From: a virus
DNA: 47,462 nt
Strand: one strand, 5' to 3'
Virus genome (UHGV): UHGV-0128156
In this document: one piece after another, positions 113 to 44,481 of the stretch
Layout of the letters: every line of letters starts with the position of its first letter
Numbering within the stretch: the first letter of the stretch is position 1
Notes under the pieces: generated by a model
Databases searched by the model: none
Told to the model about the DNA's origin: nothing
Seen by the model: the letters and a program-made list of their open reading frames with translations, nothing else
Translations under genes and position numbers: made by a program

Positions 113-1255
113 TTACTGGATTTCAAATGCAGATAATTTCTCCTCCAGTTCGTCTACTCGCTTAATCAGTACCTTTACCGCCGCGAGCGTATCCATCATG
201 ATCACGTTGTTGTCCAGTTGAAGAAATTCAGTTTCGATCTTTTCCCCGTCCTTCATGTACACCATTTTGCTGTTCTTGACGTACTGCGGATCAACGTCCT
301 GCGCCTGCTGCGCGATAATCCCCCGGCGCGTCCTTTCATGCTCATCGTCGTTATAGACGAACGTGACAAGCTCAAGCGCCCGGATGCGTTCGACTGACAG
401 TTGTCCGTCGGTCGGTTCAATGTTGTGCTTAAGGCGAGCGTCGGATGTTCCCTGAAACTGGACGAACCCTTTCGTGCTGTTCTGAATCCTTCCGTCTGGA
501 AGGAATGCAGTATATTGTACCGGAGCATTAAACCCGCGAACCTGAATCACTAACTTATGCGCTACGCCAACATGCTCCTCATACCAGATTGAGCACGCCC
601 CTGAATCACCATTATTGTCAGCACCTCGGTTATTGAACCGCCATGTCATAGCCGGGGATGCAATTATATCCCCCGTCGAGGCATTGGGCGGATCATTCTG
701 CAACATTGCGACATACGACTGGGCATAGCTGCCGTGATAGTTTGTGATAGTTCCTGCGTACACACCCAGGCCGCCATTCCTGATCCTCAGTCCGGGAGAG
801 ATAGTCAGCGCTCCGTCTTCAGTGATGATCCTGTGTGTAAAATCGGCCTCACTATTCCCATGATGAAAATCAATGTAAGGAGTATCAAAAAACAGCTCAA
901 GGCCATTTCTGATTGTCGCCTTCCCTCCGATATTCACCTGCTTCTCGAATGTGACAAGCTCTCTAAATGTGTTCACGGCGTTGAAGGTTTGCGACTTCGT
1001 CCACGTATTGGTGGCGGTATATTTGGCCTGATCCTTGTTGGCCGCCGTCAGCGCCGTGTCGATATTCTGCTGTCGTGTGACGTATTCGCTCAGGAACTGC
1101 GCCCACGACTTGACGGTGGCCGTCGTTCCGTCCGGCTTAGTGATTGTCACATTGCCTGCCCCGAACAAATATTGCTGTTGGTTCGCTAAATCAACATAAG
1201 TGCGGTCGAAGCACTTCTGAATGCTGGCCGCCAATTCGTCACTAATGTTAGCCAT
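113..1255 (-). CDS. Side tail fibre protein with C-terminal intramolecular chaperone (peptidase S74-like) domain
   Basis: The C-terminal motif ...SDARLKHNIEP... followed by a coiled C-terminus is the hallmark of the self-cleaving chaperone domain of phage tail fibres and endosialidases. The N-terminus DLANQQQYLFGAG is fibre-like. Confidence 0.75.
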   Translation of the reverse strand: MANISDELAASIQKCFDRTYVDLANQQQYLFGAGNVTITKPDGTTATVKSWAQFLSEYVTRQQNIDTALTAANKDQAKYTATNTWTKSQTFNAVNTFRELVTFEKQVNIGGKATIRNGLELFFDTPYIDFHHGNSEADFTHRIITEDGALTISPGLRIRNGGLGVYAGTITNYHGSYAQSYVAMLQNDPPNASTGDIIASPAMTWRFNNRGADNNGDSGACSIWYEEHVGVAHKLVIQVRGFNAPVQYTAFLPDGRIQNSTKGFVQFQGTSDARLKHNIEPTDGQLSVERIRALELVTFVYNDDEHERTRRGIIAQQAQDVDPQYVKNSKMVYMKDGEKIETEFLQLDNNVIMMDTLAAVKVLIKRVDELEEKLSAFEIQ

Positions 1256-1263
1256 AGTGCCCC

Positions 1264-1872
1264 TCAGTCATATTTACTGGAAAAAATGAACAGCGCCGTG
1301 GTCTGGTAAACAAAACCAGCTGGACCAGCGGATTGACCGGCAGGAATTGCGTTATTCGACAAGAAATTCCCATAGGCTCCAGTGAAACTTCTGAATATTG
1401 TCCACAGCTGTCCGGTTCGCTGAGAAATAAGCGAAGAGGCGCATGGCGAAACCGCAATAGGTTGACCCATATCGCGCGGTTTCATATTTCCACTAATCGC
1501 TGTGGTTTGTACTTCTAACGGTTTCATCCCCGCGTGATAAACCATCCGGCCTGACGCATCAAAAATAAAACCGCCATACCTGGGAACATCTATAACCATA
1601 TTTCCAAAGGCGTAGACCGTGATATTCCCTGTTCCTGTCGTTCGGATTATCTGAAGGCATTTAAACCCGTTTTGTGAAAATTCACGCGTGATACATACCG
1701 CGTCATTGTCAAAGCGAATGAAAAACATGCATTGCATGTTGTCGGGTATACGCGATTGAAAAACATATCCGTTATTACCAGGAATAACGACCCGGTCAAT
1801 AAGATTCATCGGCGTAAAGTCAGGACTCATCCACATGGCGCCGTTTTCATCGACAATTTGCATTCCATACAT
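1264..1872 (-). CDS. Hypothetical tail-associated protein (start uncertain; alternative ATG at 1863)
   Basis: Long ORF lying between the J/lipoprotein genes and the tail fibre gene, co-oriented with them. I do not recognise any domain. Confidence 0.4.
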   Translation of the reverse strand: MYGMQIVDENGAMWMSPDFTPMNLIDRVVIPGNNGYVFQSRIPDNMQCMFFIRFDNDAVCITREFSQNGFKCLQIIRTTGTGNITVYAFGNMVIDVPRYGGFIFDASGRMVYHAGMKPLEVQTTAISGNMKPRDMGQPIAVSPCASSLISQRTGQLWTIFRSFTGAYGNFLSNNAIPAGQSAGPAGFVYQTTALFIFSSKYD

Positions 1873-2149
1873 AATTAAGGACCGAAGAAAAAAACAATTC
1901 GTGACATGCTGGGGTCCACGCCGTTCCACGACGCGGCCCCTCCAGAAATGGATACTGAAGGTGAACTGCCTGGCGTTCCTTTCCAGTCCGCTGTACCCAC
2001 CACGTAATACCGTAGTGCTTTACCCGGTGGTGGATTTCCATAATTGACATAACCCGAAGCCTGCGTGTAAGAACCGAGAAAAAAAACCGGGGTGAATACC
2101 CCGGTTATATCCCTACCACTGGCGTCGTACATTCGAGCGCCGTAGCCCA

Positions 2150-2437
2150 TTATTTACAGTCCTTATTAGTAAATCCGGTCGCCAGCCAGTGCCCTACGGG
2201 ACGAACTGTCTGGCCAGGTGCAACACGCACCTGCATGCGACCAAAGCGGTCATACCTGACCGCATTGATTTTTAGCTGGTACTGCCCGTTTACCGGATAG
2301 GTGTTGATTTTGTATGTCACAGTGCATTCAGTTGGCTTGTAACGCTGGTCTGCACAACCACTAACCAGGATGCTAATACCGCCCACCAACAAAACGCAGG
2401 ACACCGTTTTGATCAAAAACTTTAAGCCCTGATTCAT
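2150..2437 (-). CDS. Small lipoprotein encoded immediately downstream of, and overlapping, the 3' end of J (possible Cor/Lom-position superinfection-exclusion or outer-membrane protein)
   Basis: MNQGLKFLIKTVSCVLLVGGISILVSGC gives a signal peptide with lipobox LVSGC. Its start lies 64 nt inside the J coding region in another frame. Confidence 0.5.
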   Translation of the reverse strand: MNQGLKFLIKTVSCVLLVGGISILVSGCADQRYKPTECTVTYKINTYPVNGQYQLKINAVRYDRFGRMQVRVAPGQTVRPVGHWLATGFTNKDCK

Positions 2438-5400
2438 CCAATTGAATCCTCCCTTGACCAGGTACATTGCTATTCATTTCGAAAGCCCCATTTTTTGGCA
2501 AACGCCAGCCGGTGGAGCCAGGTTGATAGTTTGTTGACTGCAGGCTGTCAGAAATCTGACCAAAGTTAATCGTCAGGTTACGGGCCATCGCCTGCTGAAA
2601 ATAAGCGCCGTTCCCGTCGATACCGAAGACCATATTTTTTTGATCGCCGTTAGGCACATAAACGCCAAACGTATCAGCCTGGACCAGGAACTGTGACTGG
2701 CCGCTGCCGTCAATCCCCAGCTGGATACCCGCCACGTAGTTATTCCCACCGGAAGACGTATTGACCTTAACGCCCCACTGCGCTCCCAATTTCCCGTTTA
2801 AATCCGCCACGGTGGATGCCGTCTGCTGAACGGTCGCAGACATATCCCCGACCTGCGAGGTCAGCGTGGTGATTTGCTCAGTGGTTGATTTTTCCAGGTC
2901 GGCAACGGTTTTGTTCGTCGTGGTGATTGCCGCGCTGTTGTCGCCAATCATGCTGCGCATCTGGTTAAAGCCGGTCGCCATTGCCAGGCCGTTAGATGCG
3001 ATGGTTTCGTCCTGCTTCGTGATGCGCGATTCTGCATCATCCACACGCGAGCCGAGGCTGGTGATTTGCCCTGCCTGCGCGGTGATATCCTTCCCTTGCT
3101 GGGTCACGGTCGCAGTCAGCTGGGTAACGGCGTTCGCGGCGCCAGTGGCGGTATCCTGCGCCTCCTGTGCGTCGGTCACATCGACAATGCTGATATCGTC
3201 CAGATGCAGCGAATAACCGGCTCCACCGTTCGCCCCCCTGGTGGAGATCCACATCTGCGCAATGCTCCGGTCGGCACCAACGGTCGCTACCCCCGTCAGG
3301 AGAACCCATTTACCGCGCGAGATGTTTGTCTCGGAGATACGGACGGCTTCCGGCCACTGGTTTGCGCCGCCATTCTCTCCGCGAGCAAAGAGGCCGACAG
3401 ACACGCTCCAGCCGTTCGGTGTCGACATATCGCTGGCCATGTAAGCCCAGAGAGAAAACCGATACTTACCGCCACCACGAACAGCAAGCCAGTTCCCGAT
3501 CATCTTGTCGCTGTTGCCGCTCTCGCCGTTGTTACGCGTGATTTTGAGCGACTTCTGGCCATTGCGGTAAACATCGGTCGAGACGCGCGCCAGCGAGCTG
3601 CTGCCCAGCTGCTGGTTTGCGGTGTACGACTCAAATGAGCCATCACACCAGGGGTTTAATCCCTGGCTCTGCAGCGCACCGATTGAGGCGTTGACCGACG
3701 TGATCGCGCTGGCATTAGAGGCAATATCTTTTCCCTGCTGTGTCACGGTCGACTGCAGGTTAGATACAGCGCCAGCCGTGGCATCGAGATCGACCCGGTC
3801 AGTAATATCGATAACGTACACATCGTCGATATAAATTTCGCCTGCATTCAAAAACGCGTTGATGCTGACCGACATGGTGCCGTCTTTAGTGGCGGTCCAT
3901 GTGTTGCTGTACTCCTGCCATACGCTGCCAGTCAGCATTGTGGCCGGGTCGAAGCGCGCCTCAACGATTACAGAGCTGTCGAGGTACGCAAATCGAACCT
4001 TGTTATTCGGCTGCGTGTTCGGCTGCATAGTCGACCCGGCCTTAGCCCGCAACCACGCGCCAAACTTGTACGTCCTGCCCTTAACAACAGTAATAACAGT
4101 GTCACTCGACAAAAGAGTCGCGGATGTAGCGGCGACATATTTCACGATTTTTTTGCCGCTATGGGGACTGGATGCCGCCATAATCGTCGTTGGTGCTGGC
4201 GCGGTCCAGTTGGTGAAGTCGCGCTCGAATCCTCCGTTTAAAATCAGGTTGCCCGTGATTTTGTTATCCACGTCAGCCATTGCTGCATTCAGGCTTGCAG
4301 AAACGGCGGTCGTGGCGCTGGCATTCGCAGCAATATCCTTGCCCTGCTGCGTGACCGTCTGCTGCAGCTGCGTGACCGCAGACGTATTTGCATCGATGGC
4401 CACCGCATCGGTGATGTCGTAAATGGCGATGTAGTCAATTTGAATGACCGATGCGTTCGGGTAGCAGTAGAGCGCAAAAACAGAGCCATCCACTGTCGCC
4501 GACGATGGCGCGCTAAACTCAGCGGCATACGTCGCCCAGGTATCCGTGGCGGAGAACTGCCGGTTTTCATAAGTCCCGGCCACATTCCCCAGGTAGTTAA
4601 ACCGGCGAACCATGAAATTCATCGCGCCGGATACTCCCTTCGCCTTAACGATGACCTGGTAGCGACGTGGGGTATTGTGTGGCAGCGGCGCTTTCTGGTT
4701 AGCAAAGAGGCCGGTATACAACGTGCTGTCGAGTTGCGTCATCTGGACGCCGGGTTTACCGTCGCCAAAGTCGCCAAACTCCACCTTGTTACGCGTATTC
4801 CCCTGGACACCCCACAGCGCCGATCCACTCATAAAATTAAAATCGTTTGCCAGGTTCTCGCCGCGATTGAGCATCGCATTCACCGCGCCGGTGACGGAGG
4901 TGATCGCCTGGCTGTTCGTTTCAATTTTCCCTTCCGCTGCCGTGGTTCGTTGCGTCAGGGACTGAATTGCGCTGCTGTTCGCGCTCTGCCCGGATTCAAG
5001 GTTCGACACTCGACCTGTAATGGCTGTAATAGCCTGGCCCTGGCTGGTGATAGTGTTGCCCTGCTGCGTCACTTTCGCATCCAGCTGGGTGACAGCACCG
5101 GCGGCAGCGTCGGCGGCAGTCTGTGCGCCCTGCGCGGCGGTGATCTCCCGGCAGTGGAAATCAGTTGCATACCAGACGGAGCCAAACGGCGCGTTCTGGT
5201 TCACCTGCAGGAATGGGCGCATATATCCGCGCGGGAAGTTAGCCGGGACCGTCCAGCGGTATTTTTTCTCCGTCCAGGTCTGAGTGGGCGCAACGCTACC
5301 CGGTAAAGCAGCATAAGCCACGGCACCCGTATTCGGTCCCGTAGCCGAGCCGATGTACATGTTAAATGCGGCGTTGGAACCTGCCTTTGCCGCTACCCAG

Positions 5401-8400
5401 ACCGAAATCTCGAATACCTGTCCCGCTTTTACCGGCCACGGTGGCGTATTGAGCTGGTGATCGCGTGAGGCCAGTCGCGCTACATAGCGACGCGGAGCGC
5501 CTGCCGGGATGTCAGCATCATACGGAATACCATCATCGTCGTTGCTGTCTACCGTATCCCGACGGGTAAAACCCATCGATGGATATGCGGGGTCAAATGT
5601 CGGGTTCAGGATGTAGTCGCCACCCGCTGCCGTCTGCGAATTCAGAGCAACATTAATCCCGGTGATCGCCGTTCCCTGCGATTCAATTTTACCCTCAGCA
5701 CTGGTGACGCGCGTATCAAGCTTGCTCACGGCATCGGCGGTGGCCGCTTTGGCCAGCCCTTCCTCAACCGTCGCTACGCGTCCTTTCAGGCTGGTTATGG
5801 CCTGGTTCGCCGCCGTAATATCCTTGCCCTGCTTGGTAACGGTGGCGCTGAGGTCCTGTACTGTCGAGCTATCGGCCTTCTGGTCGATTCGTTTCCCCAG
5901 GTCTGTGTTAACGGTATCGATTCTGCCGGTCAGTTGCGTTAGCGATTTACCCTGACTGGTAATCGTATCGCCCTGCTGGGAGACGGTTGTCTGCAGGTTG
6001 GTCAACGCTGTCGCGTTCGCATTAATATTTTCCTGGTCGGTAATATCAATGACGAACATGTCATCGATATAGAGCTCCCCGGAGGCAAGGCGAGCCATAA
6101 CGCTCATCTGCATAACGCCCGATTTATTCGCCTTCCACTTAGCAAATACTTCTGTCCAGACGGAACCAGTCTGCAGTTTTGTTGGGTCAATACGGGCTTC
6201 CTGAATCTGCGAATTGTCATTAAACGCAAACCGGAATTTGTTGCTTTGTTCGGAGCCAGTAACGATAGCCGTCCCGTCTTTCGCTCGTGCGAATCCTCCA
6301 AACCTATAAGTCCGACCAGCAACGACCGTCACGGTCGTGGTATTGCGTACCTCATCCAGCTGGTCGTTATGAGCTTTGAAGTAAAGAATTTTTTTACCTG
6401 AGCTGGGTTGTTGGGCCGTATCCACACGAACATCGGTCGTTGAACCTGTAACCCAATTATCAAAGCCACGCTCAAACCCACCATTCGGGATTAGGTTTCC
6501 GGCCAGCTTGTTGTCTGCGTCATGCTTCATCGCAGAAAGATCTGCTGACAGGCTCGTCGTCGCAGCAACGTTCGCAGCAATATCCTTACCCTGCTGCGTG
6601 ACGGTGGACTTCAGGCTATCCAGCGCGGCGGTGGTGGCTTTCTTCGCCACCTCGGCATTGGTGGTATCAATACACCCACTCAGGCTGGTGATCGCGCTGG
6701 CGTTGGTGGCAATGTCGTCACCGTTCTTCGTGACCTGCGACTGCAGGTCCTGCACCGCTGATGCATCGGCTTTACCAGCGATACCGTTTGAGGCGGTCAG
6801 CATGAAGCCCTGCAGGTAAACACGAGCGGTCGACGGCGTCCATCCTCCGCAGGCCATGCGCAGGTAACACCACCTCCCTTTGAAGTCATTCGGGATCGTG
6901 AACGTCAGCGTGCGGGTCTGGTAGCCGGTGGTGATGCCTGCAAACCAGTTGTTGTCCTGAGTAAGCCATGCGGTCGGGTTCCCCCAATTCTCAATCAGGC
7001 CCATCGTAAAATTCTGGGTCCCGATACTGATCGTCGCGTCGTCCGTCTTGAATCCGAAGGTGAGCGTCAGTACCTGACCGGCTTCGACCGGGATTTTTGT
7101 TCCGTTGGCGATTCGCATCGCCGGCTCGGTCGTGGTGAGACCTTTCATCACCGCGTCATAGACCGGAGCACCCGCGCCGGTGCCGGACAGCTGCCAGTTA
7201 TCCGCTTTATTAATCAGGTCGCCATTCAGCAGGAGGTTGCCGGTCGTAATCTGTGACTTGAGCGCCGTCGTCTGCTGCGCCGTGGTGGCCAGCGTATTCT
7301 CGGCAGTCGTGACGCGGGTCGTCAGTTGCTGGACAGCATCCGAGCTGGCGCTGTCTGCCGGTGCCTGGCTCCAGTCGCTCACAATATTGCCGGATTCAAA
7401 CATCGGAGAGCTGATCCACGCTTCGCGCGCTGCAGCTGCGCCGTCGAGTCTGGCCACAACGAGATACGCCGTCCCGGACAAGCCAGGTTTGCGTTTGTAT
7501 TTAACCCAATAGCGGCTCCAGGACGTGGAGAGCGTCACGGTCACATCGCCGTTATACCCGGCTGGACGCTCCACAATAACGCCCTGGCTGGTTTCAGCGC
7601 GGATAGTGGCATCCGGCGTATTCAGGAAACAACGAACCGGCGTCTTGTCCGTCTTCGCTTTCGCATAGAACGACAGAACATACTCGGTACCGTCAACCGG
7701 CGCGGCCAGCGTGTAGTCGAGGACGGCAAAATCAGTCGCTCCGGCGGCACGCGTCAGGATGCGAACCGCGTTACCCCGGTAACGTTCGGTTGTAGATGGC
7801 GATTTGCCGGTCAGTTCCCCGGAGTTGGGTATCAGGTTTACGCCGCCGATTCGGATGTTATCGACCTTCGATTCCACCCCGGCAATCTGGCTGGCGTTGG
7901 CCTGAACTTTGCCGTCGATAGTCTGGACGTCACCCTCGATTTTCTGGATGGCCAGCGTATGGCCAGCAATGACGCCGTTCGCTGAAACAAGGTCCGCTGC
8001 AACCTGATCCGTTTTCGAGGCAGTCGACTGCAGGTCGCTCGCCAGCGTATCCATGCGCTGGGTCGCCGCTGCAGTGGATTTATCATAATCGACGCGCAAC
8101 GTATCAACGCGGGAGCCGATGGCCTTCTCCGCCGTCACGCGGATTTTCCGCTCTTCGAAAAGCAGGCCAGAAACCAGTTTATTCGGGTCTGTCCCTTCCT
8201 CGTTGCCGCGCAGCTGCACCGCCAGTTGGTTACGCTCCATCGCCTCAGCTGAGTCGGCAGCAGTCATCGCCGTTTTCAGGTCCTGAATCTGCGCCTGCGA
8301 TGCGCCAGGAGTCGGGCGCCCAACGGCCAGCCAGTCAACGGCATAATAGTTATCGGCGTCAGCCGCTCCACCCTGTGAGAAGTCGAGACGCAGGCGGCGG

Positions 8401-11400
8401 ATGGTGCCGGAGGCCTGCCACGGGATATCCGGGATCGCGATAGTGCTGATGCCGGTGGCCGGGTCAAAATCCGGTGCTGGCAGCACCAGGCGGCGTCCAT
8501 CGGTCCAGCCGGTTTCATCAGCGCCAATCCAGTACAGCCGACCGCCCCAGGCCGGGTTGCCGACTTTCTTGATGCGCAGGCGGAGGTACTTATAGGCGCT
8601 GCCGTCAATCAGCGTGCCAGCGCCCGACGGGCTGCGCATGGTCGAAATGGAATCCGCAGGAAGGACCCACCCGTCGTCGTTCGTCGGGAGCGGTTTCGTG
8701 CCGCCGTCGTCAGAACTCCACCCCTCGTTGTCCTTGTCGAAATACCAGATTTTGAGACTGTCGAACTGCTCCCCGGTACCGGCTGAAATCGACGCCATCT
8801 GCTGCGCCAGGCTGTCAAAGCCATCCTGCATGGTGACGTTCGTCGTCTCAATCGCCGCTTCAACTTCGCGTTTGGCACTCAGCAGGTTATCGGCGGCCTG
8901 CTTCGCCAGGGCGGCATCGTCCGTTTCGGCTTTCGCCACCGCCGCCGCAGTATCGCTGGCCGCTTTCTGCGCCGTGGCGGCATCACCTGCAGCGCGGTCT
9001 TTCACTTCCTGCGCCAGCTTGTTGGTCGTGTCGTTAGTTTTGGCGATGTTGGTGGCCAGGTCCTTGCCCTGCTGCGTGACAATGGCCCCCTGTGCGGCGA
9101 CATCCTTCGCCGCCTGGTCAGCGGTTCCCTGGGCGGCGTCCGCAGCCTGTTGCGCGGCGTCGGCAGCAGCGCTGTTGTCCTGGATGCCTTTGTTCAGTTC
9201 CTCGTATGTATCCGAGCCTTTAAGCGCGTCGTCGAGCTGCTGGTAATAATCAGAAACGTTATCGCTGGACATTCCATGCACCCAGCTGGTCCACGGCGAG
9301 GCATTGCCCAGGCGGTCAACCAGGCGCGCGCGGTACCAGAACTGCGTGGCAATCTGCAGGCCCATCTGTTGATACTGTTTGCCCGGATACGCTAAATCGG
9401 TCAGCGGCATCGCACCGTTTCCACTCTGGTCCGGGCTGTACTGCAGTTCAGTTCGCTGGCTATCCTCTGCGCCTGCAGGGAATTCCCAGCGAATTTCGAT
9501 ACCTGCGGTCAGTGAAACGGTCGTCAGCGCCAGCGGCGGCAGCGGCTCGCCGACTTTCCCGGTCAGGGTCTTCTCTTCCGAGTACGCCCAGCCACTGGAA
9601 ATTTCCGCCGCGTTGATCGCACGGACTCGCACCAGATAGCGACCGGCATAAATGCCGCTGACCTCAAATGACGTGGTCGAGCTGCGCGGCACGTTAATCC
9701 AGTTGCCGTCATTGCGGCGCCACTGAGCCTCATAGGCGATAGCGTTTTGTACCGCGTCCCAATTGACCTGCAGGGTTTCGACGCTGATCCCCTGATTCAC
9801 CACGGAGAAGGACGTCAGGAGGATGCCATCTGGCGGAGCCTGGTTGCCAGGCGGGATAACACTAATCGGGCGCTGGTCGATGATTGCGCCGGTATCGATA
9901 CGAGCAAATTTATCCGGGTCGTGAGCCACGCCGGTAATGGTAAGCGTGCCGTTATTGTTGTCCTTTACACCGATAACGCGATACTGCTGCGGCACCAGGT
10001 CGGTATATTCGACGATCCAGACGCACTCCGCCTCTGGTGTCTCACTGTATCCCGTCGTGACCGTTACCTGCCGGCGGCCATTCACCGACAGGATGGCCCT
10101 AGCCTGCGAGATACCCGACGGCAGATTCAGATGCAGGCGGTCGCCTTCTTTTGCATCGATATCACGGTCGAGCGTGATGACGCGTCCATTCACCGCGCTG
10201 ATACGACCACCATTAACTCGCCCGGCCAGCCGTTCATCGCCCAGGCCAATGATGTAACCAGGCTGTGGGATCCTGCCGTCCAGACCAACATCAATTTCGA
10301 CCATACGGTCCTTGTTGTTGGTCAGAATGGCCCATAACCCTTTACGATGGGCTTCACTCTGCCGCGTACATCCAATGGCCGTGACTTCCACCTGATTAAA
10401 GCTGTAACGGGAAACCAGTTCCGGGATAAATGCGGGCTCCATCGCATCGGCATAGGCGTTATCCGGGTCAGACCATGAAACTAGCGCATTGGTGTACCGC
10501 GCCTTACTGGTGCTGCTGGAATAGCGCGGGCTACCGATAATATTTGCGCGCGTATAGTTGAAATCGACATCACGCGGCATATCGGCCTGCACGATAATCT
10601 GCTCACCACTCCAGCAGGTCATACCCCGGAAAATAGCAGCGAAATCGCGTAGTACGGTGTAGGCGTCGTTGCGTTCCTGGACATAAACGTTACAGGTATG
10701 GCGAGGCTCCATACCATCACCGCCCCTGCCATCGGGTATCAGCTGATCGCAATACTGCGCAATCGGGTAAAGCGCCCATTTGGAGATATTCGCGCTGGTC
10801 AGACGATCGCCAAGACCGAAACGATCAGAGACAATAATGTCGTAATAAATCCATGCCGGGTTATCAGTCCATGCCCATTTGAAGCCCCCTGTCCATGTGC
10901 CGGTATATTCGCGCGTTTCCGGGTTGTAGTTATCCGGGACACGGATAACACGCCCGCGCGGCTCGCAGGAGATTTGCGGGATAGAACCATTGAACTGGCT
11001 GGAGTCGAATTCGATGTACAGCAGAGCGGTATGTGGGTAACGCAGTTTCGCGTCAATAACCTCGGTGTAGCTCTGTAGCGTCATGACATCGCCGATTTTG
11101 ACGCTGTTCGCGTCCGGCGATACCTTGCGAAGACGCAGCGTCCAGGTGCTGCCTGCCTGCGGTAAATCTATACGGTGGCTACGTTCATACCCGGAAGTCG
11201 TTTTGCCGGAGGCTGCGGTTTCCAGTACGGTCTGCCAGGCTTCGCCATCCGTCTGTAAATCGATGGCGTATTTAACGGTATTCCCCACCACATCGCCGTC
11301 GTCTTCCTGTTTCATCAGGGATGGCCATTTCAGGCGGACGCGAACGGCAGAAAGCTGGGTATTGGTGAATGTGTGGGTCCAGGCGGTCTCGCTGGAAACT

Positions 11401-11699
11401 TCCGTCCCTACGCTAATTTCATTTTCAGTGCCGGGAATACCCTGAATATAATTTTGTGCCTGCGTACCCGGCCTGAATTCCCACGCTACGCCGCTAAAGC
11501 TTTGCGAACCGTCGGCATTCTCCAGAGGGGTGCCATCGAGATAAATATCTTTCCCGGTTAAACCACCCGCAAATTCACCCTCACCTAATGCGATAAGAAT
11601 TTTGGCTTTTGCTACAGACTGTAAATCGTCCGGCTGTTCCGTGGGCGTACGCTGTTTAGAGCTGCCACCTTTACGCCCTTTAATGATGTTATTTGCCAT
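2373..11699 (-). CDS. J: Giant host-specificity / central tail fibre protein (lambda J-like N-terminal region with a very long repeat-rich C-terminal extension), 3108 aa
   Basis: The N-terminal ~1000 aa follow the lambda gpJ pattern and the gene sits directly downstream of gpI. The C-terminal two thirds contain at least 8 diverged modules built from the motif V(T/S)QQGKDI...ITSL plus CBM-like NL(I/L)PNGGFE(R)(G/D)F(D/T)NW segments. Confidence 0.85.
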   Translation of the reverse strand: MANNIIKGRKGGSSKQRTPTEQPDDLQSVAKAKILIALGEGEFAGGLTGKDIYLDGTPLENADGSQSFSGVAWEFRPGTQAQNYIQGIPGTENEISVGTEVSSETAWTHTFTNTQLSAVRVRLKWPSLMKQEDDGDVVGNTVKYAIDLQTDGEAWQTVLETAASGKTTSGYERSHRIDLPQAGSTWTLRLRKVSPDANSVKIGDVMTLQSYTEVIDAKLRYPHTALLYIEFDSSQFNGSIPQISCEPRGRVIRVPDNYNPETREYTGTWTGGFKWAWTDNPAWIYYDIIVSDRFGLGDRLTSANISKWALYPIAQYCDQLIPDGRGGDGMEPRHTCNVYVQERNDAYTVLRDFAAIFRGMTCWSGEQIIVQADMPRDVDFNYTRANIIGSPRYSSSTSKARYTNALVSWSDPDNAYADAMEPAFIPELVSRYSFNQVEVTAIGCTRQSEAHRKGLWAILTNNKDRMVEIDVGLDGRIPQPGYIIGLGDERLAGRVNGGRISAVNGRVITLDRDIDAKEGDRLHLNLPSGISQARAILSVNGRRQVTVTTGYSETPEAECVWIVEYTDLVPQQYRVIGVKDNNNGTLTITGVAHDPDKFARIDTGAIIDQRPISVIPPGNQAPPDGILLTSFSVVNQGISVETLQVNWDAVQNAIAYEAQWRRNDGNWINVPRSSTTSFEVSGIYAGRYLVRVRAINAAEISSGWAYSEEKTLTGKVGEPLPPLALTTVSLTAGIEIRWEFPAGAEDSQRTELQYSPDQSGNGAMPLTDLAYPGKQYQQMGLQIATQFWYRARLVDRLGNASPWTSWVHGMSSDNVSDYYQQLDDALKGSDTYEELNKGIQDNSAAADAAQQAADAAQGTADQAAKDVAAQGAIVTQQGKDLATNIAKTNDTTNKLAQEVKDRAAGDAATAQKAASDTAAAVAKAETDDAALAKQAADNLLSAKREVEAAIETTNVTMQDGFDSLAQQMASISAGTGEQFDSLKIWYFDKDNEGWSSDDGGTKPLPTNDDGWVLPADSISTMRSPSGAGTLIDGSAYKYLRLRIKKVGNPAWGGRLYWIGADETGWTDGRRLVLPAPDFDPATGISTIAIPDIPWQASGTIRRLRLDFSQGGAADADNYYAVDWLAVGRPTPGASQAQIQDLKTAMTAADSAEAMERNQLAVQLRGNEEGTDPNKLVSGLLFEERKIRVTAEKAIGSRVDTLRVDYDKSTAAATQRMDTLASDLQSTASKTDQVAADLVSANGVIAGHTLAIQKIEGDVQTIDGKVQANASQIAGVESKVDNIRIGGVNLIPNSGELTGKSPSTTERYRGNAVRILTRAAGATDFAVLDYTLAAPVDGTEYVLSFYAKAKTDKTPVRCFLNTPDATIRAETSQGVIVERPAGYNGDVTVTLSTSWSRYWVKYKRKPGLSGTAYLVVARLDGAAAAREAWISSPMFESGNIVSDWSQAPADSASSDAVQQLTTRVTTAENTLATTAQQTTALKSQITTGNLLLNGDLINKADNWQLSGTGAGAPVYDAVMKGLTTTEPAMRIANGTKIPVEAGQVLTLTFGFKTDDATISIGTQNFTMGLIENWGNPTAWLTQDNNWFAGITTGYQTRTLTFTIPNDFKGRWCYLRMACGGWTPSTARVYLQGFMLTASNGIAGKADASAVQDLQSQVTKNGDDIATNASAITSLSGCIDTTNAEVAKKATTAALDSLKSTVTQQGKDIAANVAATTSLSADLSAMKHDADNKLAGNLIPNGGFERGFDNWVTGSTTDVRVDTAQQPSSGKKILYFKAHNDQLDEVRNTTTVTVVAGRTYRFGGFARAKDGTAIVTGSEQSNKFRFAFNDNSQIQEARIDPTKLQTGSVWTEVFAKWKANKSGVMQMSVMARLASGELYIDDMFVIDITDQENINANATALTNLQTTVSQQGDTITSQGKSLTQLTGRIDTVNTDLGKRIDQKADSSTVQDLSATVTKQGKDITAANQAITSLKGRVATVEEGLAKAATADAVSKLDTRVTSAEGKIESQGTAITGINVALNSQTAAGGDYILNPTFDPAYPSMGFTRRDTVDSNDDDGIPYDADIPAGAPRRYVARLASRDHQLNTPPWPVKAGQVFEISVWVAAKAGSNAAFNMYIGSATGPNTGAVAYAALPGSVAPTQTWTEKKYRWTVPANFPRGYMRPFLQVNQNAPFGSVWYATDFHCREITAAQGAQTAADAAAGAVTQLDAKVTQQGNTITSQGQAITAITGRVSNLESGQSANSSAIQSLTQRTTAAEGKIETNSQAITSVTGAVNAMLNRGENLANDFNFMSGSALWGVQGNTRNKVEFGDFGDGKPGVQMTQLDSTLYTGLFANQKAPLPHNTPRRYQVIVKAKGVSGAMNFMVRRFNYLGNVAGTYENRQFSATDTWATYAAEFSAPSSATVDGSVFALYCYPNASVIQIDYIAIYDITDAVAIDANTSAVTQLQQTVTQQGKDIAANASATTAVSASLNAAMADVDNKITGNLILNGGFERDFTNWTAPAPTTIMAASSPHSGKKIVKYVAATSATLLSSDTVITVVKGRTYKFGAWLRAKAGSTMQPNTQPNNKVRFAYLDSSVIVEARFDPATMLTGSVWQEYSNTWTATKDGTMSVSINAFLNAGEIYIDDVYVIDITDRVDLDATAGAVSNLQSTVTQQGKDIASNASAITSVNASIGALQSQGLNPWCDGSFESYTANQQLGSSSLARVSTDVYRNGQKSLKITRNNGESGNSDKMIGNWLAVRGGGKYRFSLWAYMASDMSTPNGWSVSVGLFARGENGGANQWPEAVRISETNISRGKWVLLTGVATVGADRSIAQMWISTRGANGGAGYSLHLDDISIVDVTDAQEAQDTATGAANAVTQLTATVTQQGKDITAQAGQITSLGSRVDDAESRITKQDETIASNGLAMATGFNQMRSMIGDNSAAITTTNKTVADLEKSTTEQITTLTSQVGDMSATVQQTASTVADLNGKLGAQWGVKVNTSSGGNNYVAGIQLGIDGSGQSQFLVQADTFGVYVPNGDQKNMVFGIDGNGAYFQQAMARNLTINFGQISDSLQSTNYQPGSTGWRLPKNGAFEMNSNVPGQGRIQLDESGLKVFDQNGVLRFVGGRY
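3084..9095. repeat. Dispersed intragenic nucleotide repeat family inside J (about 25-45 bp core aatatccttgccctgctgcgtgac...ctgcag)
   Basis: Copies near 3084, 3724, 4332, 5048, 5817, 5950, 6579, 6711 and 9058. They encode the repeated peptide TQQGKDI on the minus strand. The artefactual plus-strand ORFs carrying ISLPCCVTV are their mirror image. Confidence 0.8.
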
Positions 11700-11809: not shown

Positions 11810-12361
11810 ATGGAAAAATCAGAGCGTCATCATTTTGTTAGTTTTCCGTATCGCCCGGCCATCAGAGAAGATGGTGAAATAAACAACGGAGGATTCGATC
11901 TGACCCTCGAACCGGAGCGCATATCAGAAATACACGAAATCAAAGATTATCCGTGGTTCAGGGATTTTCTGATTAGCGTCAATACATACGGTCTCTTATT
12001 TATGACCTTTGGATGCGCCCTTGGGAGTCTGGAAGAATCTTTCTGCGGATATATCGATTTTTCTCTTCGCCCTGACAGTCCGACACATTTGCGGGTAGAT
12101 CTTAGTCAACTTGACGATCTGTTTTACCAATATCTTGCAGGGGCCATGCCGGACGAGGAAACCCGCATTCGGGGTATTGAATATGCCCGAAGCATTCTCC
12201 ATTGGACACTTTCGCCTCTAGAAATTCGTGGTGAATCCTATGCAAAAGTGACTCTGACATTTGATGCTTCTCAACAAGAAGGGGTTGCATGGGTGTTTGA
12301 CCATCTGAGTTATTTTTTAACAATCTCATATCCTTCATTACCTCATGTCATGGCTGGTTGA
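11810..12361 (+). CDS. Hypothetical protein, opposite-strand moron inserted between tail genes I and J
   Basis: 183-aa ORF convergent with gpI (stop codons 5 bp apart). GC content is lower than in the flanking tail genes. No TM segments or recognisable domain. RBS is weak. Confidence 0.5.
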   Translation: MEKSERHHFVSFPYRPAIREDGEINNGGFDLTLEPERISEIHEIKDYPWFRDFLISVNTYGLLFMTFGCALGSLEESFCGYIDFSLRPDSPTHLRVDLSQLDDLFYQYLAGAMPDEETRIRGIEYARSILHWTLSPLEIRGESYAKVTLTFDASQQEGVAWVFDHLSYFLTISYPSLPHVMAG

Positions 12362-12366
12362 CAGTG

Positions 12367-12957
12367 CTACTGCTGGTCTTCGACATAGATACCGGCGGAA
12401 ATAATCGCGCCGCCAATTCGCCGCTTACCATAAAGCAAACCAACAGGATAACCCTGTGAGGCGGTATTGGTTACGCCGCCAAAGGCATAGCTGGCTTTAT
12501 TATCGGGGGATTCTTTACGGGCAAGGCCTGCTGGCTGAGGTGAAAGCATCTGCACAACACCGCCTAGCATCATGGCTCCGCCTGCCATCATCACATTTAC
12601 GCCCCACGCCTGACCGAATCCGAAAGTGGCTATAGCTCCAACCGCAACAATGACCGCACCTAAAATAGTCTGAAGAAAACCGGCTTTTTTGCTACCAATG
12701 ACTACAGGGACAATGCGAATTACCTCTCCAGTTATCGGAAAACCTAAGTCATCTACCCCTATGTTTTTTTCTCCTTTAAATACCGCATAGGTTAATCCGC
12801 GCTCTTTGCTGGTAATCATAAATTTTTCAAAGCCGGGTATCGTTTTCGCCAGCGCTATGCCTGCTTCATGGATGCACGAAATAAGACGGTGATGAGTTTT
12901 TCCAAACTTTTTACCGAGCATCCCACTTAATTCAATACGCGTCATAACTTCTTGCAT
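12367..12957 (-). CDS. I: Tail assembly protein I (lambda gpI-like)
   Basis: Position between K and J. Glycine- and hydrophobic-rich C-terminal half typical of gpI. Start at the ATG of MQEVMTRIEL, preceded by GGGGGAG. Confidence 0.75.
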   Translation of the reverse strand: MQEVMTRIELSGMLGKKFGKTHHRLISCIHEAGIALAKTIPGFEKFMITSKERGLTYAVFKGEKNIGVDDLGFPITGEVIRIVPVVIGSKKAGFLQTILGAVIVAVGAIATFGFGQAWGVNVMMAGGAMMLGGVVQMLSPQPAGLARKESPDNKASYAFGGVTNTASQGYPVGLLYGKRRIGGAIISAGIYVEDQQ

Positions 12958-12968
12958 TTTTTCTCCCC

Positions 12969-12995
12969 CGAAAAAAACCGCCTGACGGCGGTTCT
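12969..12995 (-). terminator. Rho-independent terminator after the lipoprotein moron
   Basis: Minus strand reads AACCGCCGTCAGGCGGTT followed by TTTTTTTCGGGGGAG, then the gpI start. Confidence 0.7.
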
Positions 12996-13010
12996 TCACA
13001 TAAAGATAAA

Positions 13011-13424
13011 TTAAAAAGCCGTGGGGTATATTCCAAAATCACCATTGGTTCCATAACCAATCCGGTACATTAATGTTTTTCCATCAGCAACTGTCCCCGA
13101 CTGCTCACTCATTCCACCACCACACATTCCTTTTGGCCATGCGCTAAATACATGATTCCCTACTTCTGGATAAATCACGGCTTTTTGAGTGGTATCTAAA
13201 TCAGCTATCTCTTTACCATCTAGATATACTCGCGTCATACAAGCGCTACCCATAACACCAGAGTCTCGCTTTATAATAACTTCGCCCGTGCCTTCTTTTT
13301 TAGAAAAAAACGATGAGTCCAATATTTGTTTGAAGGGGATATTTTGTGCCTGTTCATTTGTTACTGGTTTAGTTGCACACCCGCTAATTCCCACAATCAC
13401 TAAAGCTAGTGCAATTTTTTTCAT
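13011..13424 (-). CDS. Lipoprotein of unknown function (AT-rich moron between K and I)
   Basis: MKKIALALVIVGISGC gives a lipobox. GC content is clearly lower than in neighbouring tail genes. It has its own terminator. Confidence 0.7.
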   Translation of the reverse strand: MKKIALALVIVGISGCATKPVTNEQAQNIPFKQILDSSFFSKKEGTGEVIIKRDSGVMGSACMTRVYLDGKEIADLDTTQKAVIYPEVGNHVFSAWPKGMCGGGMSEQSGTVADGKTLMYRIGYGTNGDFGIYPTAF

Positions 13425-13465: not shown

Positions 13466-14176
13466 TTAACACAGAGAATGATATCGAACGATTTTCATCG
13501 TTCTATCTAACCAGTATCCACCATACGGCACACGCTGGCTGAGATGGCCATAAAGGTGGTGCAGTAGCATGTTACCTTCCAGCAGAATCCCGGCATGGTT
13601 CCATTTGTCCGACTGCACCTGCATGATCACCATATCACCCGGCTGCGGTGGACCATCAAATTCACGGAATCCGCATTCATACCAGCAATCGTGGTAGAAA
13701 TTTTCGGGATAGTCGTTTTCCCACCAGGGATAATCAACGCGGTAATCGTGCAGCTCGATGCCGTGGTTCTGCCGGAAATAGCTCATCACTAAACCCCAGC
13801 AATCGTAATGGCCAAGCACGAACGGTCGCTCGAGGAGGGGCAACTCTCCGCGTGGGTGGATGGTACGCAGATCGCCTTCTGGACAGCTGATAATATGCCA
13901 GGGGAGCAGCGTTGCATCGCACTGCGCCTTATCCAGTTCGCTGGGTTGCGTGGTCGCATCAGGATGGCTGTGAACAATGCCGATAATCGTTCCCCAGTCC
14001 TCTACCTCTGCGTAATCTTCTGGTGACAAGACGAAATTATCATTCGACTCGCTGGCCAGGTTCCTGCAGGGAAAATAGCGCTCCACTCTGCCCCGTTGAG
14101 CAATCAATCCGCATGCCTCACGCGGATAATCAGCTGCAGCATGAGCCTGTATCGCCTTAATCGTTTTCTGGCGCAT
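13466..14176 (-). CDS. K: Tail tip assembly protein K (NlpC/P60 plus JAB/MPN domains)
   Basis: HSHP...PS...D JAMM-like motif and DCWGLV cysteine-peptidase motif. Position between L and I. Confidence 0.85.
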   Translation of the reverse strand: MRQKTIKAIQAHAAADYPREACGLIAQRGRVERYFPCRNLASESNDNFVLSPEDYAEVEDWGTIIGIVHSHPDATTQPSELDKAQCDATLLPWHIISCPEGDLRTIHPRGELPLLERPFVLGHYDCWGLVMSYFRQNHGIELHDYRVDYPWWENDYPENFYHDCWYECGFREFDGPPQPGDMVIMQVQSDKWNHAGILLEGNMLLHHLYGHLSQRVPYGGYWLDRTMKIVRYHSLC

Positions 14177-14177
14177 A

Positions 14178-14933
14178 TCAGCTCCTTATCAGCGACGTAC
14201 CAGGGAACCCGCCGAACGGCAGCTCGTTATGCTCGCCAAAACGTAATTTGCAGGCAGTGATTGTTCCGTTGCAGACGTCCTTCGATGGGTCATCAACCGG
14301 TTTGTTATTCTTGTCGAAATACTTTGTCCCGGCATAATCGCAGCCATCGCCACTACGGTATTTGTTGCGAATACACCAGGTGCAAACCGAATGATACTGG
14401 CGGGTTGGGATCAGCTTCCCCTGCACCCCCATCGGGCTATCGAGTGTGAACTCCACCGTTTCATCGGTTTCAAGTTGTTTGGCGTCAATGAAAAATAGCT
14501 GCCGCTTTTCCTGCGTCGGGTCCGCGGTGGCATTACCTTCAGGGAAGTTTCGCGCATCCAGATACTGCTTCTGCGTATCATGGATGGTGACCCGCGCCAT
14601 CGCCAGATCGTCATAATGCAAACACAACGCGGTAATTTTCCCTTCTACGTTACCAACCCTGAGCGTGGGCTGCGCATCGCTGCCAGTAGTGGACGATTCG
14701 ATGCCGTCGATATCGCATGGCCATGCTTTATATTCGGTGCCCTGCCACCAGATACTTTTAGCTGACAATTTCGACTCATCACCACCGGCTGCAATAATTT
14801 CCTCGGCTGAGTGCGGAATATTATAGCCGTGGAAGTATAAGACCTCGTCCATATTGAAAGAACGGCCATCAATTTCAAAAAGCCGGATTGAATCACCCGG
14901 CTCCAGCTTCTGATAATCTGCATTAAGGCTCAT
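14178..14933 (-). CDS. L: Minor tail protein L
   Basis: Lambda gpL-like protein with a C-terminal cysteine cluster (C..C...C, the Fe-S site of gpL). Coupled to M and K. Confidence 0.85.
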   Translation of the reverse strand: MSLNADYQKLEPGDSIRLFEIDGRSFNMDEVLYFHGYNIPHSAEEIIAAGGDESKLSAKSIWWQGTEYKAWPCDIDGIESSTTGSDAQPTLRVGNVEGKITALCLHYDDLAMARVTIHDTQKQYLDARNFPEGNATADPTQEKRQLFFIDAKQLETDETVEFTLDSPMGVQGKLIPTRQYHSVCTWCIRNKYRSGDGCDYAGTKYFDKNNKPVDDPSKDVCNGTITACKLRFGEHNELPFGGFPGTSLIRS

Positions 14934-15268
14934 GGTTTAAATCCCTGAATAAAGGTTGCCGATAGGGAGTAGTTCCCTCCACCCATCGGTACTGGTTTAT
15001 ATTGCTCACAACGGAAAAGCCCAATATCTTCAAGGGGTGGCGTCCACTGGAAAGACTTTGTGCCGCCATGACGATCCAGGAACTGTTTTATCGGTCGGAT
15101 ATAGTCTTCGGTACCGACAAAATTCAGCTCCCATTCCTGTGACCGGGGATTTAATCCATCCCCTGATACCTGCGTATATCCGTCACCGAACTGCGCCTTT
15201 CGAGTACGGAAATTCACGGTTTGCGTTGGGTTTACTCGGGGACTCCAAGTAAATATTTCTATCGCCAT
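14930..15268 (-). CDS. M: Minor tail protein M
   Basis: RKAQFGDGY...W.PP.. pattern as in lambda gpM. ATGA overlap with L. Confidence 0.85.
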   Translation of the reverse strand: MAIEIFTWSPRVNPTQTVNFRTRKAQFGDGYTQVSGDGLNPRSQEWELNFVGTEDYIRPIKQFLDRHGGTKSFQWTPPLEDIGLFRCEQYKPVPMGGGNYSLSATFIQGFKP

Positions 15269-18200: not shown

Positions 18201-18615
18201 GCAGCTCCGGTTTAGCCGATGCCATCAGCTTGAGCGCCTCAGCAGCCTGGCTGGCGCTGTGCTCTGTCGTGCGCCCCATTTCCTGCGCGGCCAGATCCAG
18301 CGCTTTCATTTCATCAGCGGTCGCGCCGGTGATCGCCTGCAGGTCAGATAGTGCCTGGCCATACTGCCTGGACGTTGTGATGATCGTACTAATGGAAAGA
18401 CCGGCGCCTGCCAGCCCCGCCAGCCTGCTGGCCATCCCGGATATCGACAGGCCGACCTTTTTATAGGCGTCTTCCGTCTTTTTCGCGTCCGCCTGGGCAT
18501 TGCGGTTAAACCTTTTGGACTGGTTCTCCGCGTCGCCATACGCTCCCAGAAGCTGGGATTTAAAGTTGGCTGCGTTAAGGTGCAGCCCGACCGCTAAAGA
18601 TGCGACGTCTGCCAT
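15268..18615 (-). CDS. H: Tail tape measure protein
   Basis: About 1115 aa, helical and Ala/Gln-rich. Lies between G-T and M. Start taken at MADVASL, overlapping the T stop as TAATG. Confidence 0.85.
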   Translation of the reverse strand: MADVASLAVGLHLNAANFKSQLLGAYGDAENQSKRFNRNAQADAKKTEDAYKKVGLSISGMASRLAGLAGAGLSISTIITTSRQYGQALSDLQAITGATADEMKALDLAAQEMGRTTEHSASQAAEALKLMASAKPELLKTSDGLQQATNSALILAQAAGTTLPDATKTLALSLNQYGASAQEADRYINVLAAGAKYGSSEITDTAAAIKNGGVAAAQAGVGFEQLNAAIQVLAEREVKGGEAGTALRNVILNLEKGTDKTLKPSVVGLSQALNTLAGKNLSTAQAVKLFGVENLSAASILVQNRSKLDELTASLTGTQTAHEQASIRVNNLNGDLLGLSSAFEGMVIKIGQSSNGPLRSGIQTATEALNGLADNFNTVSSIALYSLIPVLSTKLTAGLRENISVWRESQAAVKARALADADIARKTLDSTAAILKQNDAEFGYYRQMERTAKQYGMNISYQDEFTRLIRQETEQTNLASQAKLKLAAANRQMSISARAASVAVGLAKGAFNLIGGPFGAAMLAGSAILYFHERAKEARQSAINLKDAVVETSEALMRLSLNQLNVKQFDLEDQYENQVVQRNQLIKEIQDADSRIGSLKGFDPFGQLDGVKKDQTRARADLDSVNEGLRKTEENIKRVSDAKTLAQLGLSGKITSLTDDLKGALSSPPKETGDGNPWIGDGGTGSGKGNKAKVDQFKTLRQQIEEAHASSLARINLQEKDSNRELQEAAKKNGASDADLQRALLMNAENYQKQRLDLAAQYSPAQETLRKEQEVSQDLAELFKARLLTEKDYQTARITLARDTAKELLQAQADEIAAPKLDIAGEVDPLVALRNQLAQRQALLQSYYQGSAISKDQYEMLMQKATKESADAQYQTSLELYRSQGEFQSLAVGLFETAHERSTNFLTSMLTRTQSFKENMVGLFSSLTQAVIKNLIDMAAQALVTSSIMQTIMGVVGIGSSIAGGAASGAVGASTGTAIQNAGSSFQFNAKGGVYDSPSLSAYSNQVHDTPQFFAFAKGAGVFGEAGPEAIMPLTRAGDGSLGVRAVGGGQNASTSEGPKVWITISGDKTSTESSSGFEEFGQQIGSFVEKKYRELQAKDMRPGGAIWNAVKGQR

Positions 18616-44178: not shown

Positions 44179-44247
44179 TTTTTTATTTTCAGAATTACGC
44201 CCACCAGCCAGTTATCTTTTACTGGCTGGCTATCTGAGGTGATAGCT

Positions 44248-44481
44248 ATGTACGAACTCACACTGTCACCAGTGGAAATTGCTGAAATTACTGGATACAG
44301 ACGGTACACAGAACAGCAGCGTCAACTTCGATGTCACGGCATTCCGTTTACTACGGATCGAAGAAATCGCCCAATTGTCCTGCGTAGAAGTCTGGCACCT
44401 AATATTACTGAATTGCCAAAGGTTGACGAGTATGTTGCAACAGAACCCAACTTTGACGCCATCTATGGGAAGACCACGTAA
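44248..44481 (+). CDS. xis: Excisionase-like protein (DUF4224 family)
   Basis: ELTLSPVEIAEITGYRRYTEQQRQLRCHGIPF...RPIVLRRSL matches the conserved DUF4224 pattern found next to integrases. GAGGTG RBS. Confidence 0.65.
   Translation: MYELTLSPVEIAEITGYRRYTEQQRQLRCHGIPFTTDRRNRPIVLRRSLAPNITELPKVDEYVATEPNFDAIYGKTT

Follow-up and report, generated by a model that had tools for sequence, protein, structure and literature searches.

Results

A giant central tail fibre of the phiKO2 gp21 family

The UHGV virus genome UHGV-0128156 was analysed as one stretch of 47,462 nucleotides (nt), referred to here as the window, and our subject is the gene at positions 2373..11699 on its minus strand. This open reading frame (ORF) begins with an ATG, runs through 3108 amino acids (aa) with 0 internal stops and, judged by its family and domain matches, encodes a central tail fibre of gpJ/TipJ type that belongs to the already known giant phiKO2 gp21 family (PHROG 2589). 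An earlier note, made from the letters alone, had described the product as J-like, about three times the length of lambda J, and built over its distal two thirds from at least eight diverged modules with motifs like those of a carbohydrate-binding module (CBM).

The profile searches bear out the J-like assignment. The protein matched phrog_31 ('central tail fiber J') at an expectation value (E) of 0, and PHROG 2589 ('tail protein', a profile of 3686 positions) at E = 0 with 3134 bits in 8 stretches. On the whole protein, Pfam returned FNIII-A_GpJ (PF24801, aa 91-217, E 4e-46), CBM_4_9 (PF02018, 111.5 bits in 5 stretches) and, at the C-terminus, Phage_Tail_Tip (PF09327, DUF1983, aa 2956-3078, E 1.5e-29). 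The NCBIfam model lambda_TipJ covered aa 12-973 at E 5.6e-141, with 471 bits, below its exception-level cut-off of 1950. The gene order M-L-K-I-J is shared with phiKO2 and points the same way. The proportions given in the note also stand: the ORF measures 2.75 times lambda J (1132 aa, from the chain length of 8iyk_J), and the reiterated part, aa 871-3108, makes up 72% of it.

The closest protein is WP_049061881.1 of K. aerogenes (3106 aa, 94.8% identity), which RefSeq names 'carbohydrate binding domain-containing protein'; close relatives carry either this label or 'phage tail tip fiber protein'. At the DNA level the gene is matched over its full length by only two K. aerogenes plasmids, at 95% identity, while its first ~2450 nt show 80-89% identity to phiKO2-like Klebsiella phages and plasmids. 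The J core is the sole part conserved as DNA in other Klebsiella phages, at ~80-89% identity. The family has been known since phiKO2, is routinely annotated and is widespread in public data, and the protein is not a new kind. Our literature search found no study that dissects gp21-type fibres.

Layout of the fibre

We mapped the repeats by self-BLAST of 200-aa fragments and delimited the globular modules by an aromatic-residue map combined with a motif search. The fragments gave a match between aa 1704-1900 and aa 2453-2646 (49.5% identity, E 2e-56), a second between aa 1701-1897 and aa 2653-2852 (30% identity), and many matches among low-complexity segments. The resulting layout is a J core, followed by an insertion of ~2000 aa in which helical rods alternate with 8 beta-sandwich modules, named A to H, and finally a coil and a tip domain. 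The features, with the evidence for each, are as follows.

2373..11699, minus strand: whole gene, giant central tail fibre (gpJ/TipJ homologue, phiKO2 gp21 type); ORF check, PHROG 2589, PHROG 31
9090..11699, minus strand: J core, aa 1-870; PF24801, NCBIfam lambda_TipJ
8763..9089, minus strand: first linker, aa 871-979, Ala-rich, helical, first VTQQGKDL motif at aa 874; composition, motif search
8265..8762, minus strand: module A, aa 980-1145, beta-sandwich of R4C megatron type; profile match
7854..8264, minus strand: linker, aa 1146-1282, helical; composition
7335..7853, minus strand: module B, aa 1283-1455, probable divergent CBM-like jelly roll; weak profile matches
7248..7334, minus strand: short linker, aa 1456-1484, helical; composition
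6765..7247, minus strand: module C, aa 1485-1645, CBM_4_9-like; recognised by profile comparison only
6504..6764, minus strand: linker, aa 1646-1732, helical, motif copies at aa 1656 and 1700; composition, motif search
6024..6503, minus strand: module D, aa 1733-1892, CBM_4_9, exact NGGFE; Pfam 2.6e-8
5625..6023, minus strand: linker, aa 1893-2025, helical, two motif copies, SlyX match; Pfam, 4lin_A alignment
5115..5624, minus strand: module E, aa 2026-2195, CBM_4_9-like; Pfam 3.8e-5, hhalign
4863..5114, minus strand: linker, aa 2196-2279, helical, motif copy at aa 2210; composition, motif search
4395..4862, minus strand: module F, aa 2280-2435, CBM_4_9-like; Pfam 3.9e-4, iterated profile 2.9e-8
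4257..4394, minus strand: linker, aa 2436-2481, helical, motif copy at aa 2449; composition, motif search
3786..4256, minus strand: module G, aa 2482-2638, CBM_4_9, exact NGGFE; Pfam 1.6e-11, AlphaFold2 (AF2) model, Foldseek
3663..3785, minus strand: linker, aa 2639-2679, helical, motif copy at aa 2652; composition, allele comparison
3147..3662, minus strand: module H, aa 2680-2851, CBM_4_9-like; Pfam 2.4e-5, BLAST to D
2835..3146, minus strand: terminal coiled segment, aa 2852-2955, motif copy at aa 2865; phmmer against solved fibres
2376..2834, minus strand: C-terminal tail tip domain, aa 2956-3108, presumed terminal receptor-binding domain; PF09327, lambda J match

The J core is the part that builds the tail tip. 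As for the NGGFE motifs that had been reported in several units, the beta-rich modules themselves are real and the exact motif occurs 2 times only, in modules D and G. Because the motif falls on the opening positions of the Pfam CBM_4_9 profile, we treat NGGFE as a hallmark of the fold and not as evidence of a ligand site.

Six homologous modules, a probable seventh and an unrelated eighth

Direct comparison by BLAST gave few significant module pairs: D-G at 48% identity (4e-49), D-H at 28% over 168 aa (2e-4) and F-G (4e-4) only. When the modules were scanned in isolation against CBM_4_9, whose gathering score is 25.9 bits, modules D (34.8 bits, 2.6e-8) and G (45.2 bits, 1.6e-11) exceeded the cut-off, and modules E (24.5 bits, 3.8e-5), F (21.2 bits, 3.9e-4) and H (25.2 bits, 2.4e-5) fell just under it. 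Module B reached 13.5 bits (0.094) with this model and 0.0012 with DUF4627; modules A and C had no Pfam match.

We then built a profile for each module from 112 homologues and phiKO2 gp21 and compared the profiles by hhalign. Module C aligned with D at 96.1% probability (3.3e-9, 140 columns) and with G at 96.4%, and module E aligned with D at 96.6% and with H at 96.9%, so that C and E join the group formed by D, F, G and H with probabilities of 95-97% across 140-154 columns. An iterated profile of D, G and H picked up module F at 2.9e-8. By these profile comparisons the six modules C-H are demonstrably homologous jelly rolls of CBM_4_9-like type.

Module B is probably a seventh CBM-like jelly roll, judging from a set of sequence matches: hhalign placed it at 37-58% against D, F and G (131-133 columns) and at 24% against the pooled module alignment (129 columns), and it matched PDB entry 3see, a 'hypothetical sugar binding protein', at 0.0022. 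It also matched the NCBIfam model NF048003 (GTA_spike_fiber) over aa 1288-1440 at 1.8e-8, with 35.1 bits against a cut-off of 36; the model describes a phage head spike fibre domain, and the match may connect module B with the head spikes that gene transfer agents carry.

On the other hand, module A gave an hhalign probability of at most 1.2% against the other modules and, on this comparison of profiles, is unrelated to them. Its own profile matched residues 489-618 of 8gtc_M at E 5e-14, within the stretch that the authors of the roseophage R4C megatron structure define as its carbohydrate-binding domain (residues 482-629; PMC10276861). The AF2 model of module A has a predicted local distance difference test score (pLDDT) of 78, and Foldseek returned weak matches of jelly-roll/CBM6 type at template modelling (TM) scores of 0.35-0.47. 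Because these fold matches are weak and generic, the assignment of module A relies on the sequence-profile match to the R4C megatron.

The earlier count of eight homologous modules was therefore too high: six are homologous, B is a probable addition and A has to be taken out. Non-homology on proper alignment, which the note had named as the outcome that would undo its reading, is not what we find for the six, is what we find for module A, and leaves module B at 24-58%.

The CBM-like description itself holds: for module G it is borne out both in sequence and in fold. The module profile matched solved CBM16, CBM4-2, CBM22 and CBM4 domains and the CBM70 of pneumococcal hyaluronate lyase, which binds hyaluronan, at 1e-14 to 1e-8, and it also matched the central fibre of mycobacteriophage Douge. 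The prediction of one module's structure that had been proposed as a check was made for module G, and it is on this module only that the jelly-roll fold of CBM4/9/16/22 type was examined by a model. The AF2 model is an all-beta sandwich, a jelly roll of CBM type, with a pLDDT of 95.3. Foldseek matched it to CBM16 2zey (E 4e-8, TM 0.71/0.77) and to CBM4-2, CBM61 and CBM22, as well as to CBM-like domains of the Klebsiella phage K2-2 tailspike, of Kp7 gp52 and of the Douge central fibre. The positions conserved across modules are NLxxN..FE, GRxYR, W113 and Y.DD..V.D.TD.

We also considered a recent tandem duplication of the modules and rejected it: the DNA repeats are only 60-79% identical and limited to the linker motif, and the two modules most alike, D and G, are not neighbours and share only 48% identity.

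Helical linkers, terminal coil and tip domain

The coil core that had been noticed from the letters as V(T/S)QQGKDI is confirmed. The motif V[TS][QK][QN]G[KDN][DT][IL] occurs in 9 copies, at aa 874, 1656, 1700, 1906, 1954, 2210, 2449, 2652 and 2865, and 0 times in 2000 shuffles of the sequence. It forms the core of a DNA repeat present in 7-8 copies of 43-61 nt with 60-79% identity. The linkers total 790 residues, have a hydrophobic periodicity peak at 3.55 residues, and differ sharply from the modules in composition (Pro 0.1% versus 4.6%, aromatics 0.8% versus 10.6%). Pfam recognised a SlyX coiled coil at aa 1945-1987, and the linker at aa 1893-2025 matched the trimeric coiled coil of P22 gp26 (4lin_A) at E 2.3e-5.

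The last ~250 aa are the canonical coil and tip domain of lambda J, J-like gp24 and F-pyocin fibres. With the last 275 aa as query, phmmer matched J-like gp24 (23gd_D at 5e-23), 9l9p_S at 2e-19, residues 969-1199 of the F2-pyocin fibre 25vf_A at 7e-15, and residues 840-934 of lambda J (8iyk_J) at 4e-5.

Cassette variation among K. aerogenes alleles

Compared with the K. aerogenes plasmid copy in windows of 100 residues, the protein is 94-100% identical up to aa 2400 and from aa 2901 onwards, while identity falls to 59-90% over aa 2401-2900. The tip region itself is 94% identical over aa 2901-3000 and 100% from aa 3001 to the end. At the nucleotide level, identity upstream of module G is 96-99%, and the distal part divides as follows.

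aa ~2470-2630, minus strand: module G, nucleotide identity to the plasmid copy 51-63%
aa 2631-2690, minus strand: linker between G and H, nucleotide identity 97-98%
aa 2691-2840, minus strand: module H, nucleotide identity 69-76%
from aa 2841, minus strand: sequence after module H, nucleotide identity 90-99%

Module G is the most variable cassette between close alleles (100, 90, 86 and 62% identity), followed by module H (99, 98 and 81%). Across K. aerogenes alleles, identity stays at 96-100% for modules A, B, E and F; the same holds for module C except in allele P0003 (81.8%). Module D is missing from alleles P0002 and P0003, the junction in P0002 lying directly after VTQQGKDI, and its GC content at third codon positions (GC3) is 0.50 compared to 0.62-0.75 in the other modules. 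The GC3 value, the absence from these two alleles and the fact that the nearest paralogue is the non-adjacent G point to a recent insertion or loss of D as a cassette.

Since some alleles have D and others lack it, and since G and H are substituted between conserved linkers, we conclude that the modules behave as cassettes swapped through these linkers. The comparison with J homologues that had been suggested for detecting module gain or loss showed gain, loss and replacement. The description of the region as modular and recombination-prone is thus upheld by the varying number and order of modules among relatives, by the loss of D at VTQQGKDI and by the divergence of G and H on either side of a 97-98% identical linker.

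Distribution among relatives

A scan with the J core, using one genome per species, recovered 80 loci. More than 60 of them (Enterobacter, Kluyvera, Xenorhabdus, Erwinia and others) encode proteins of 1050-1400 aa with the tip domain only. Giants were found at 5/5 Klebsiella loci (3264 to at least 4205 aa), 2/2 Pluralibacter and 2/3 Superficieibacter loci, the third Superficieibacter locus running off the end of its contig, and also in one uncultured enterobacterium and on one contig labelled Limoniibacter. Every giant follows the plan of J core, module A, repeated coil and CBM units and tip domain; the 14 giants among the genome loci, which carry 1-8 units in differing order and subtype, have it in common with representatives of up to 4797 aa.

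The Limoniibacter contig (locus L063, NZ_BMZO01000013.1, 52 kb, labelled Limoniibacter endophyticus) encodes a giant fibre of at least 4205 aa whose J core is 84% identical to the present one and whose module order is that of K. pneumoniae ATCC 13883 (L004). For the organism on the label this is odd, and the contig may come from contamination by a Klebsiella phage or phage-plasmid.

Searched across the library, the profile of module A found 1335 cluster representatives, 266 of them at E of 1e-30 or below and nearly all 1000-4800 aa long; the largest has 4797 aa and ten CBM modules. Across relatives the number of CBM modules ranges from 0 to 10, and their order varies. A collection of 5.8 billion proteins returned nothing longer than ~2066 aa, and giant fibres appeared there only as 'partial' entries. 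Surveys drawn from that collection therefore under-count the family.

Genomic context

The tail-tip cluster precedes J on the same strand in the order 15268-18645 (1125 aa), 14930-15268, 14178-14933, 13466-14176 and 12367-12999, the last being a phrog_32 tail assembly protein. This order agrees with the annotation of phiKO2 and of the K. aerogenes plasmid, and J stands last in M-L-K-I-J, downstream of the tape measure. The other features of the window that we annotated are listed here.

113-1255, minus strand: 380-aa tail fibre with a Peptidase_S74 intramolecular chaperone domain, downstream of J
1264-1929, minus strand: 221-aa 'membrane associated protein' (phrog_425, moron category), downstream of J
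11810-12361, plus strand: 183-aa ORF, phrog_18578 at E 1e-12, on the opposite strand between I and J
13011-13424, minus strand: 137-aa lipoprotein (phrog_890) between the K and I homologues, at the spot of the phiKO2 gp19 moron
42064-45502, plus strand: 704-aa RecE-like exonuclease (Exonuc_VIII and Rv2179c-like domain) and 407-aa tyrosine integrase, from domain matches

With the 380-aa protein the phage has a side fibre distinct from J, and host range could depend on this fibre as well. The side fibres of the F7 pyocin are anchored on its central fibre, at the coiled coil.

Judging from the integrase and the RecE-like exonuclease, the prophage in the window appears to be integrated, although its tail module is closest to that of the linear-plasmid phage phiKO2, and we assign it to the phiKO2-like Klebsiella siphophages, nearest to K. 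aerogenes. A linear plasmid prophage was considered and rejected for the window on account of the same two genes. No protelomerase or partition genes turned up in the window, where no systematic search for them was made.

Discussion

Comparison with known systems

The nearest described system is gp21 of phiKO2 (YP_006601.1, 3433 aa, 'tail protein similar to lambda J'), encoded at the same place after the M-L-K-I genes; homologues of gp21 with ~4200 aa have been recorded in K. pneumoniae prophages (PMC7784688). The two proteins share the plan of J core, module A, coil and CBM units and tip, and are 60% identical over aa 1-1492. In the distal part identity drops to 25-37% and the modules stand in a different order, A-B-DGH-DGH-E-B-DGH-TIP in phiKO2 and A-B-C-D-E-F-G-H-TIP in the present protein. 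The tip domain of phiKO2 gp21 ends at aa 3305 of 3433 and is followed by ~130 residues that have no counterpart here; extensions of ~130-180 residues beyond the tip domain occur in phiKO2 gp21 (L001) and at four further loci (L018, L006, L003 and L047). In addition, phiKO2 carries a protelomerase and partition genes, whereas the present prophage carries an integrase.

Lambda gpJ (8iyk) has in common with our protein the FNIII-A_GpJ core, the C-terminal Phage_Tail_Tip domain and the place in the tail cluster, and differs by lacking the ~2000 aa of coil and domain units that lie here between core and tip domain. F-type pyocin fibres (F2, 25vf; F7, PMC12874032) resemble the distal end, the last ~230 aa aligning to residues 969-1199 of F2, and in F7 a long trimeric coiled coil likewise stands ahead of the tip domain. 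They have one coil and no CBM array, and the switch from coil to prism has been shown for F7 only.

The R4C/RcGTA megatron (8gtc_M), a J-class host-specificity protein like ours, has in its residues 482-629 the homologue of module A. There the domain is inserted in the baseplate core, with no coiled-coil array, whereas here it forms a bead on a long fibre. The trimeric coil of P22 gp26 (4lin) shares the pattern ITa..aIt.L..RVt..E with the linker at aa 1893-2025, in a short podophage needle protein without CBM domains. The concept itself, CBMs carried on tail and tip proteins as auxiliary adhesion devices, is described for lactococcal siphophages of the 936 group (PMC6669499), in which the hosts are Gram-positive, the CBM families and carrier proteins are others, and each protein has one or two modules. 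The present fibre instead has seven or eight, on coiled-coil rods.

Function of the CBM-like array

We consider it probable, with some reservation, that the protein is a phiKO2-like fibre whose CBM-like array binds capsule or O-antigen and which adds a receptor step performed by its terminal tip domain. By analogy with the structures of lambda J and the F-pyocin fibres, the fibre would be a homotrimer, in which each linker would form a trimeric coiled coil and each node would consist of three jelly-roll domains, giving 21 CBM-like and 3 A-type domains per virion. It would appear as a beaded fibre of ~140-150 nm, made up of ~117 nm of coil (790 residues x 0.148 nm) and eight nodes. The CBM-like domains would grip the polysaccharide of the capsule or O-antigen reversibly and multivalently, and modules G and H, which lie farthest out and vary most, would tell serotypes apart. 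The virion would in this way be held and oriented in the thick Klebsiella capsule until the tip domain acts, when this invariant domain would engage a conserved outer-membrane receptor and bring about ejection.

Multivalent binding of capsule or O-antigen is plausibly the most likely role of the array. We base it on the glycan-binding families to which the modules belong, on their position in the fibre and on the concentration of allelic variation in its distal part. The restriction of the giants to heavily capsulated genera and the capsule-type specificity of Klebsiella prophages that lack depolymerases argue in the same direction: induced Klebsiella prophages, two of them with gp21 homologues of ~4200 aa, infected in a capsule-type-specific manner and had no recognisable depolymerases (PMC7784688).

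Several points weigh against this account. The positions conserved across modules look like fold core and offer no obvious aromatic binding platform, and the CBM_4_9 fold is also found in non-binding structural roles. The trimeric state and the length of the fibre are estimates taken over from lambda J and P22 gp26. Primary specificity could sit instead on the 380-aa side tail fibre (113-1255). Finally, the association with particular genera comes from relatives of this one J core and does not amount to a controlled test.

In the strongest rival, the coil and domain units only lengthen and stiffen the fibre so that the tip reaches the outer membrane across a thick capsule, and the jelly rolls, whether inert decorations or nodes that stabilise the fold, are free of ligand. 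The predicted length of ~140-150 nm from 790 linker residues and the range of 0-10 modules across relatives, as expected if length is what is selected, suit such a spacer or ruler, as do conserved residues of structural appearance. However, seven independently diverging CBM folds would be superfluous for mere length, replacement is focused on two distal domains while the flanking linkers remain 97-98% identical, and the solved members of the modules' families bind glycans. We therefore regard a pure spacer as rather unlikely.

A further reading concerns the rods. In a 2026 preprint, the coiled coil of the F7 pyocin central fibre turns into a beta-prism on receptor binding and carries a conserved SxSxxMxxLxS pattern (PMC12874032). 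Because the terminal coil of our protein is homologous to an F-pyocin fibre segment, each VTQQGKDI linker might by analogy be a metastable fold-switch element and the giant fibre a multi-stage spring. Binding of the CBMs in the capsule would then trigger a sequential coil-to-prism collapse of the linkers, which would draw the tail tip across more than 100 nm of capsule to the outer membrane and store up energy for ejection. The 790 linker residues contain 26 matches of SxSxxMxxLxS type in the forward direction against 8.5 +/- 2.7 in shuffled sequence (reverse, 11 against 8.4), with copies spaced 21 aa apart, a roughly threefold enrichment that any Ala/Thr-rich heptad coil might give. The internal linkers match P22 gp26 and not the pyocin fibres, and we hold a spring of this kind to be improbable.

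The CBM-like domains could also bind glycans that are not the host's, such as intestinal mucin, and enrich virions near Klebsiella in the manner of Ig-like or Hoc-type capsid decorations. Several solved relatives do bind plant or animal polysaccharides (hyaluronan, xylan, mannan), and the hosts of close relatives are gut and clinical isolates. Yet the domains lie between the tail tip and the receptor-binding tip domain, where they are the first to meet the host surface; giants are concentrated in genera with heavy capsules; and allelic variation within one host species suits surface diversity better than a constant mucin. This possibility appears very improbable to us. An enzymatic fibre, that is, a capsule depolymerase or esterase with accessory CBMs as in glycoside hydrolases, deserves next to no credence: CBM_4_9 modules are usually attached to enzymes, and CBM-like portions of tailspike depolymerases from Klebsiella phages are among the fold matches, but all residues are accounted for by the J core, the linkers, eight beta-sandwiches of ~160 aa and the tip domain, and the depolymerase reading was rejected for the absence of any catalytic domain in the 3108 aa in searches of Pfam, PHROGs and NCBIfam.

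Significance

Temperate Klebsiella phages infect in a capsule-type-specific manner, mostly without recognisable depolymerases (PMC7784688), and in a 2026 genome-wide association study about one in three of the K-loci analysed was left without a predictor (PMC13123978). A giant central fibre with up to ten swappable, lectin-like cassettes is a testable candidate for the missing determinant of specificity. The conserved VTQQGKDI linkers that flank modules G and H are ready-made splice points for the engineering of host range. To a family already known, the present analysis adds a map of the modules, the boundaries of the cassettes and a link, open to testing, with the capsule specificity of temperate Klebsiella phages.

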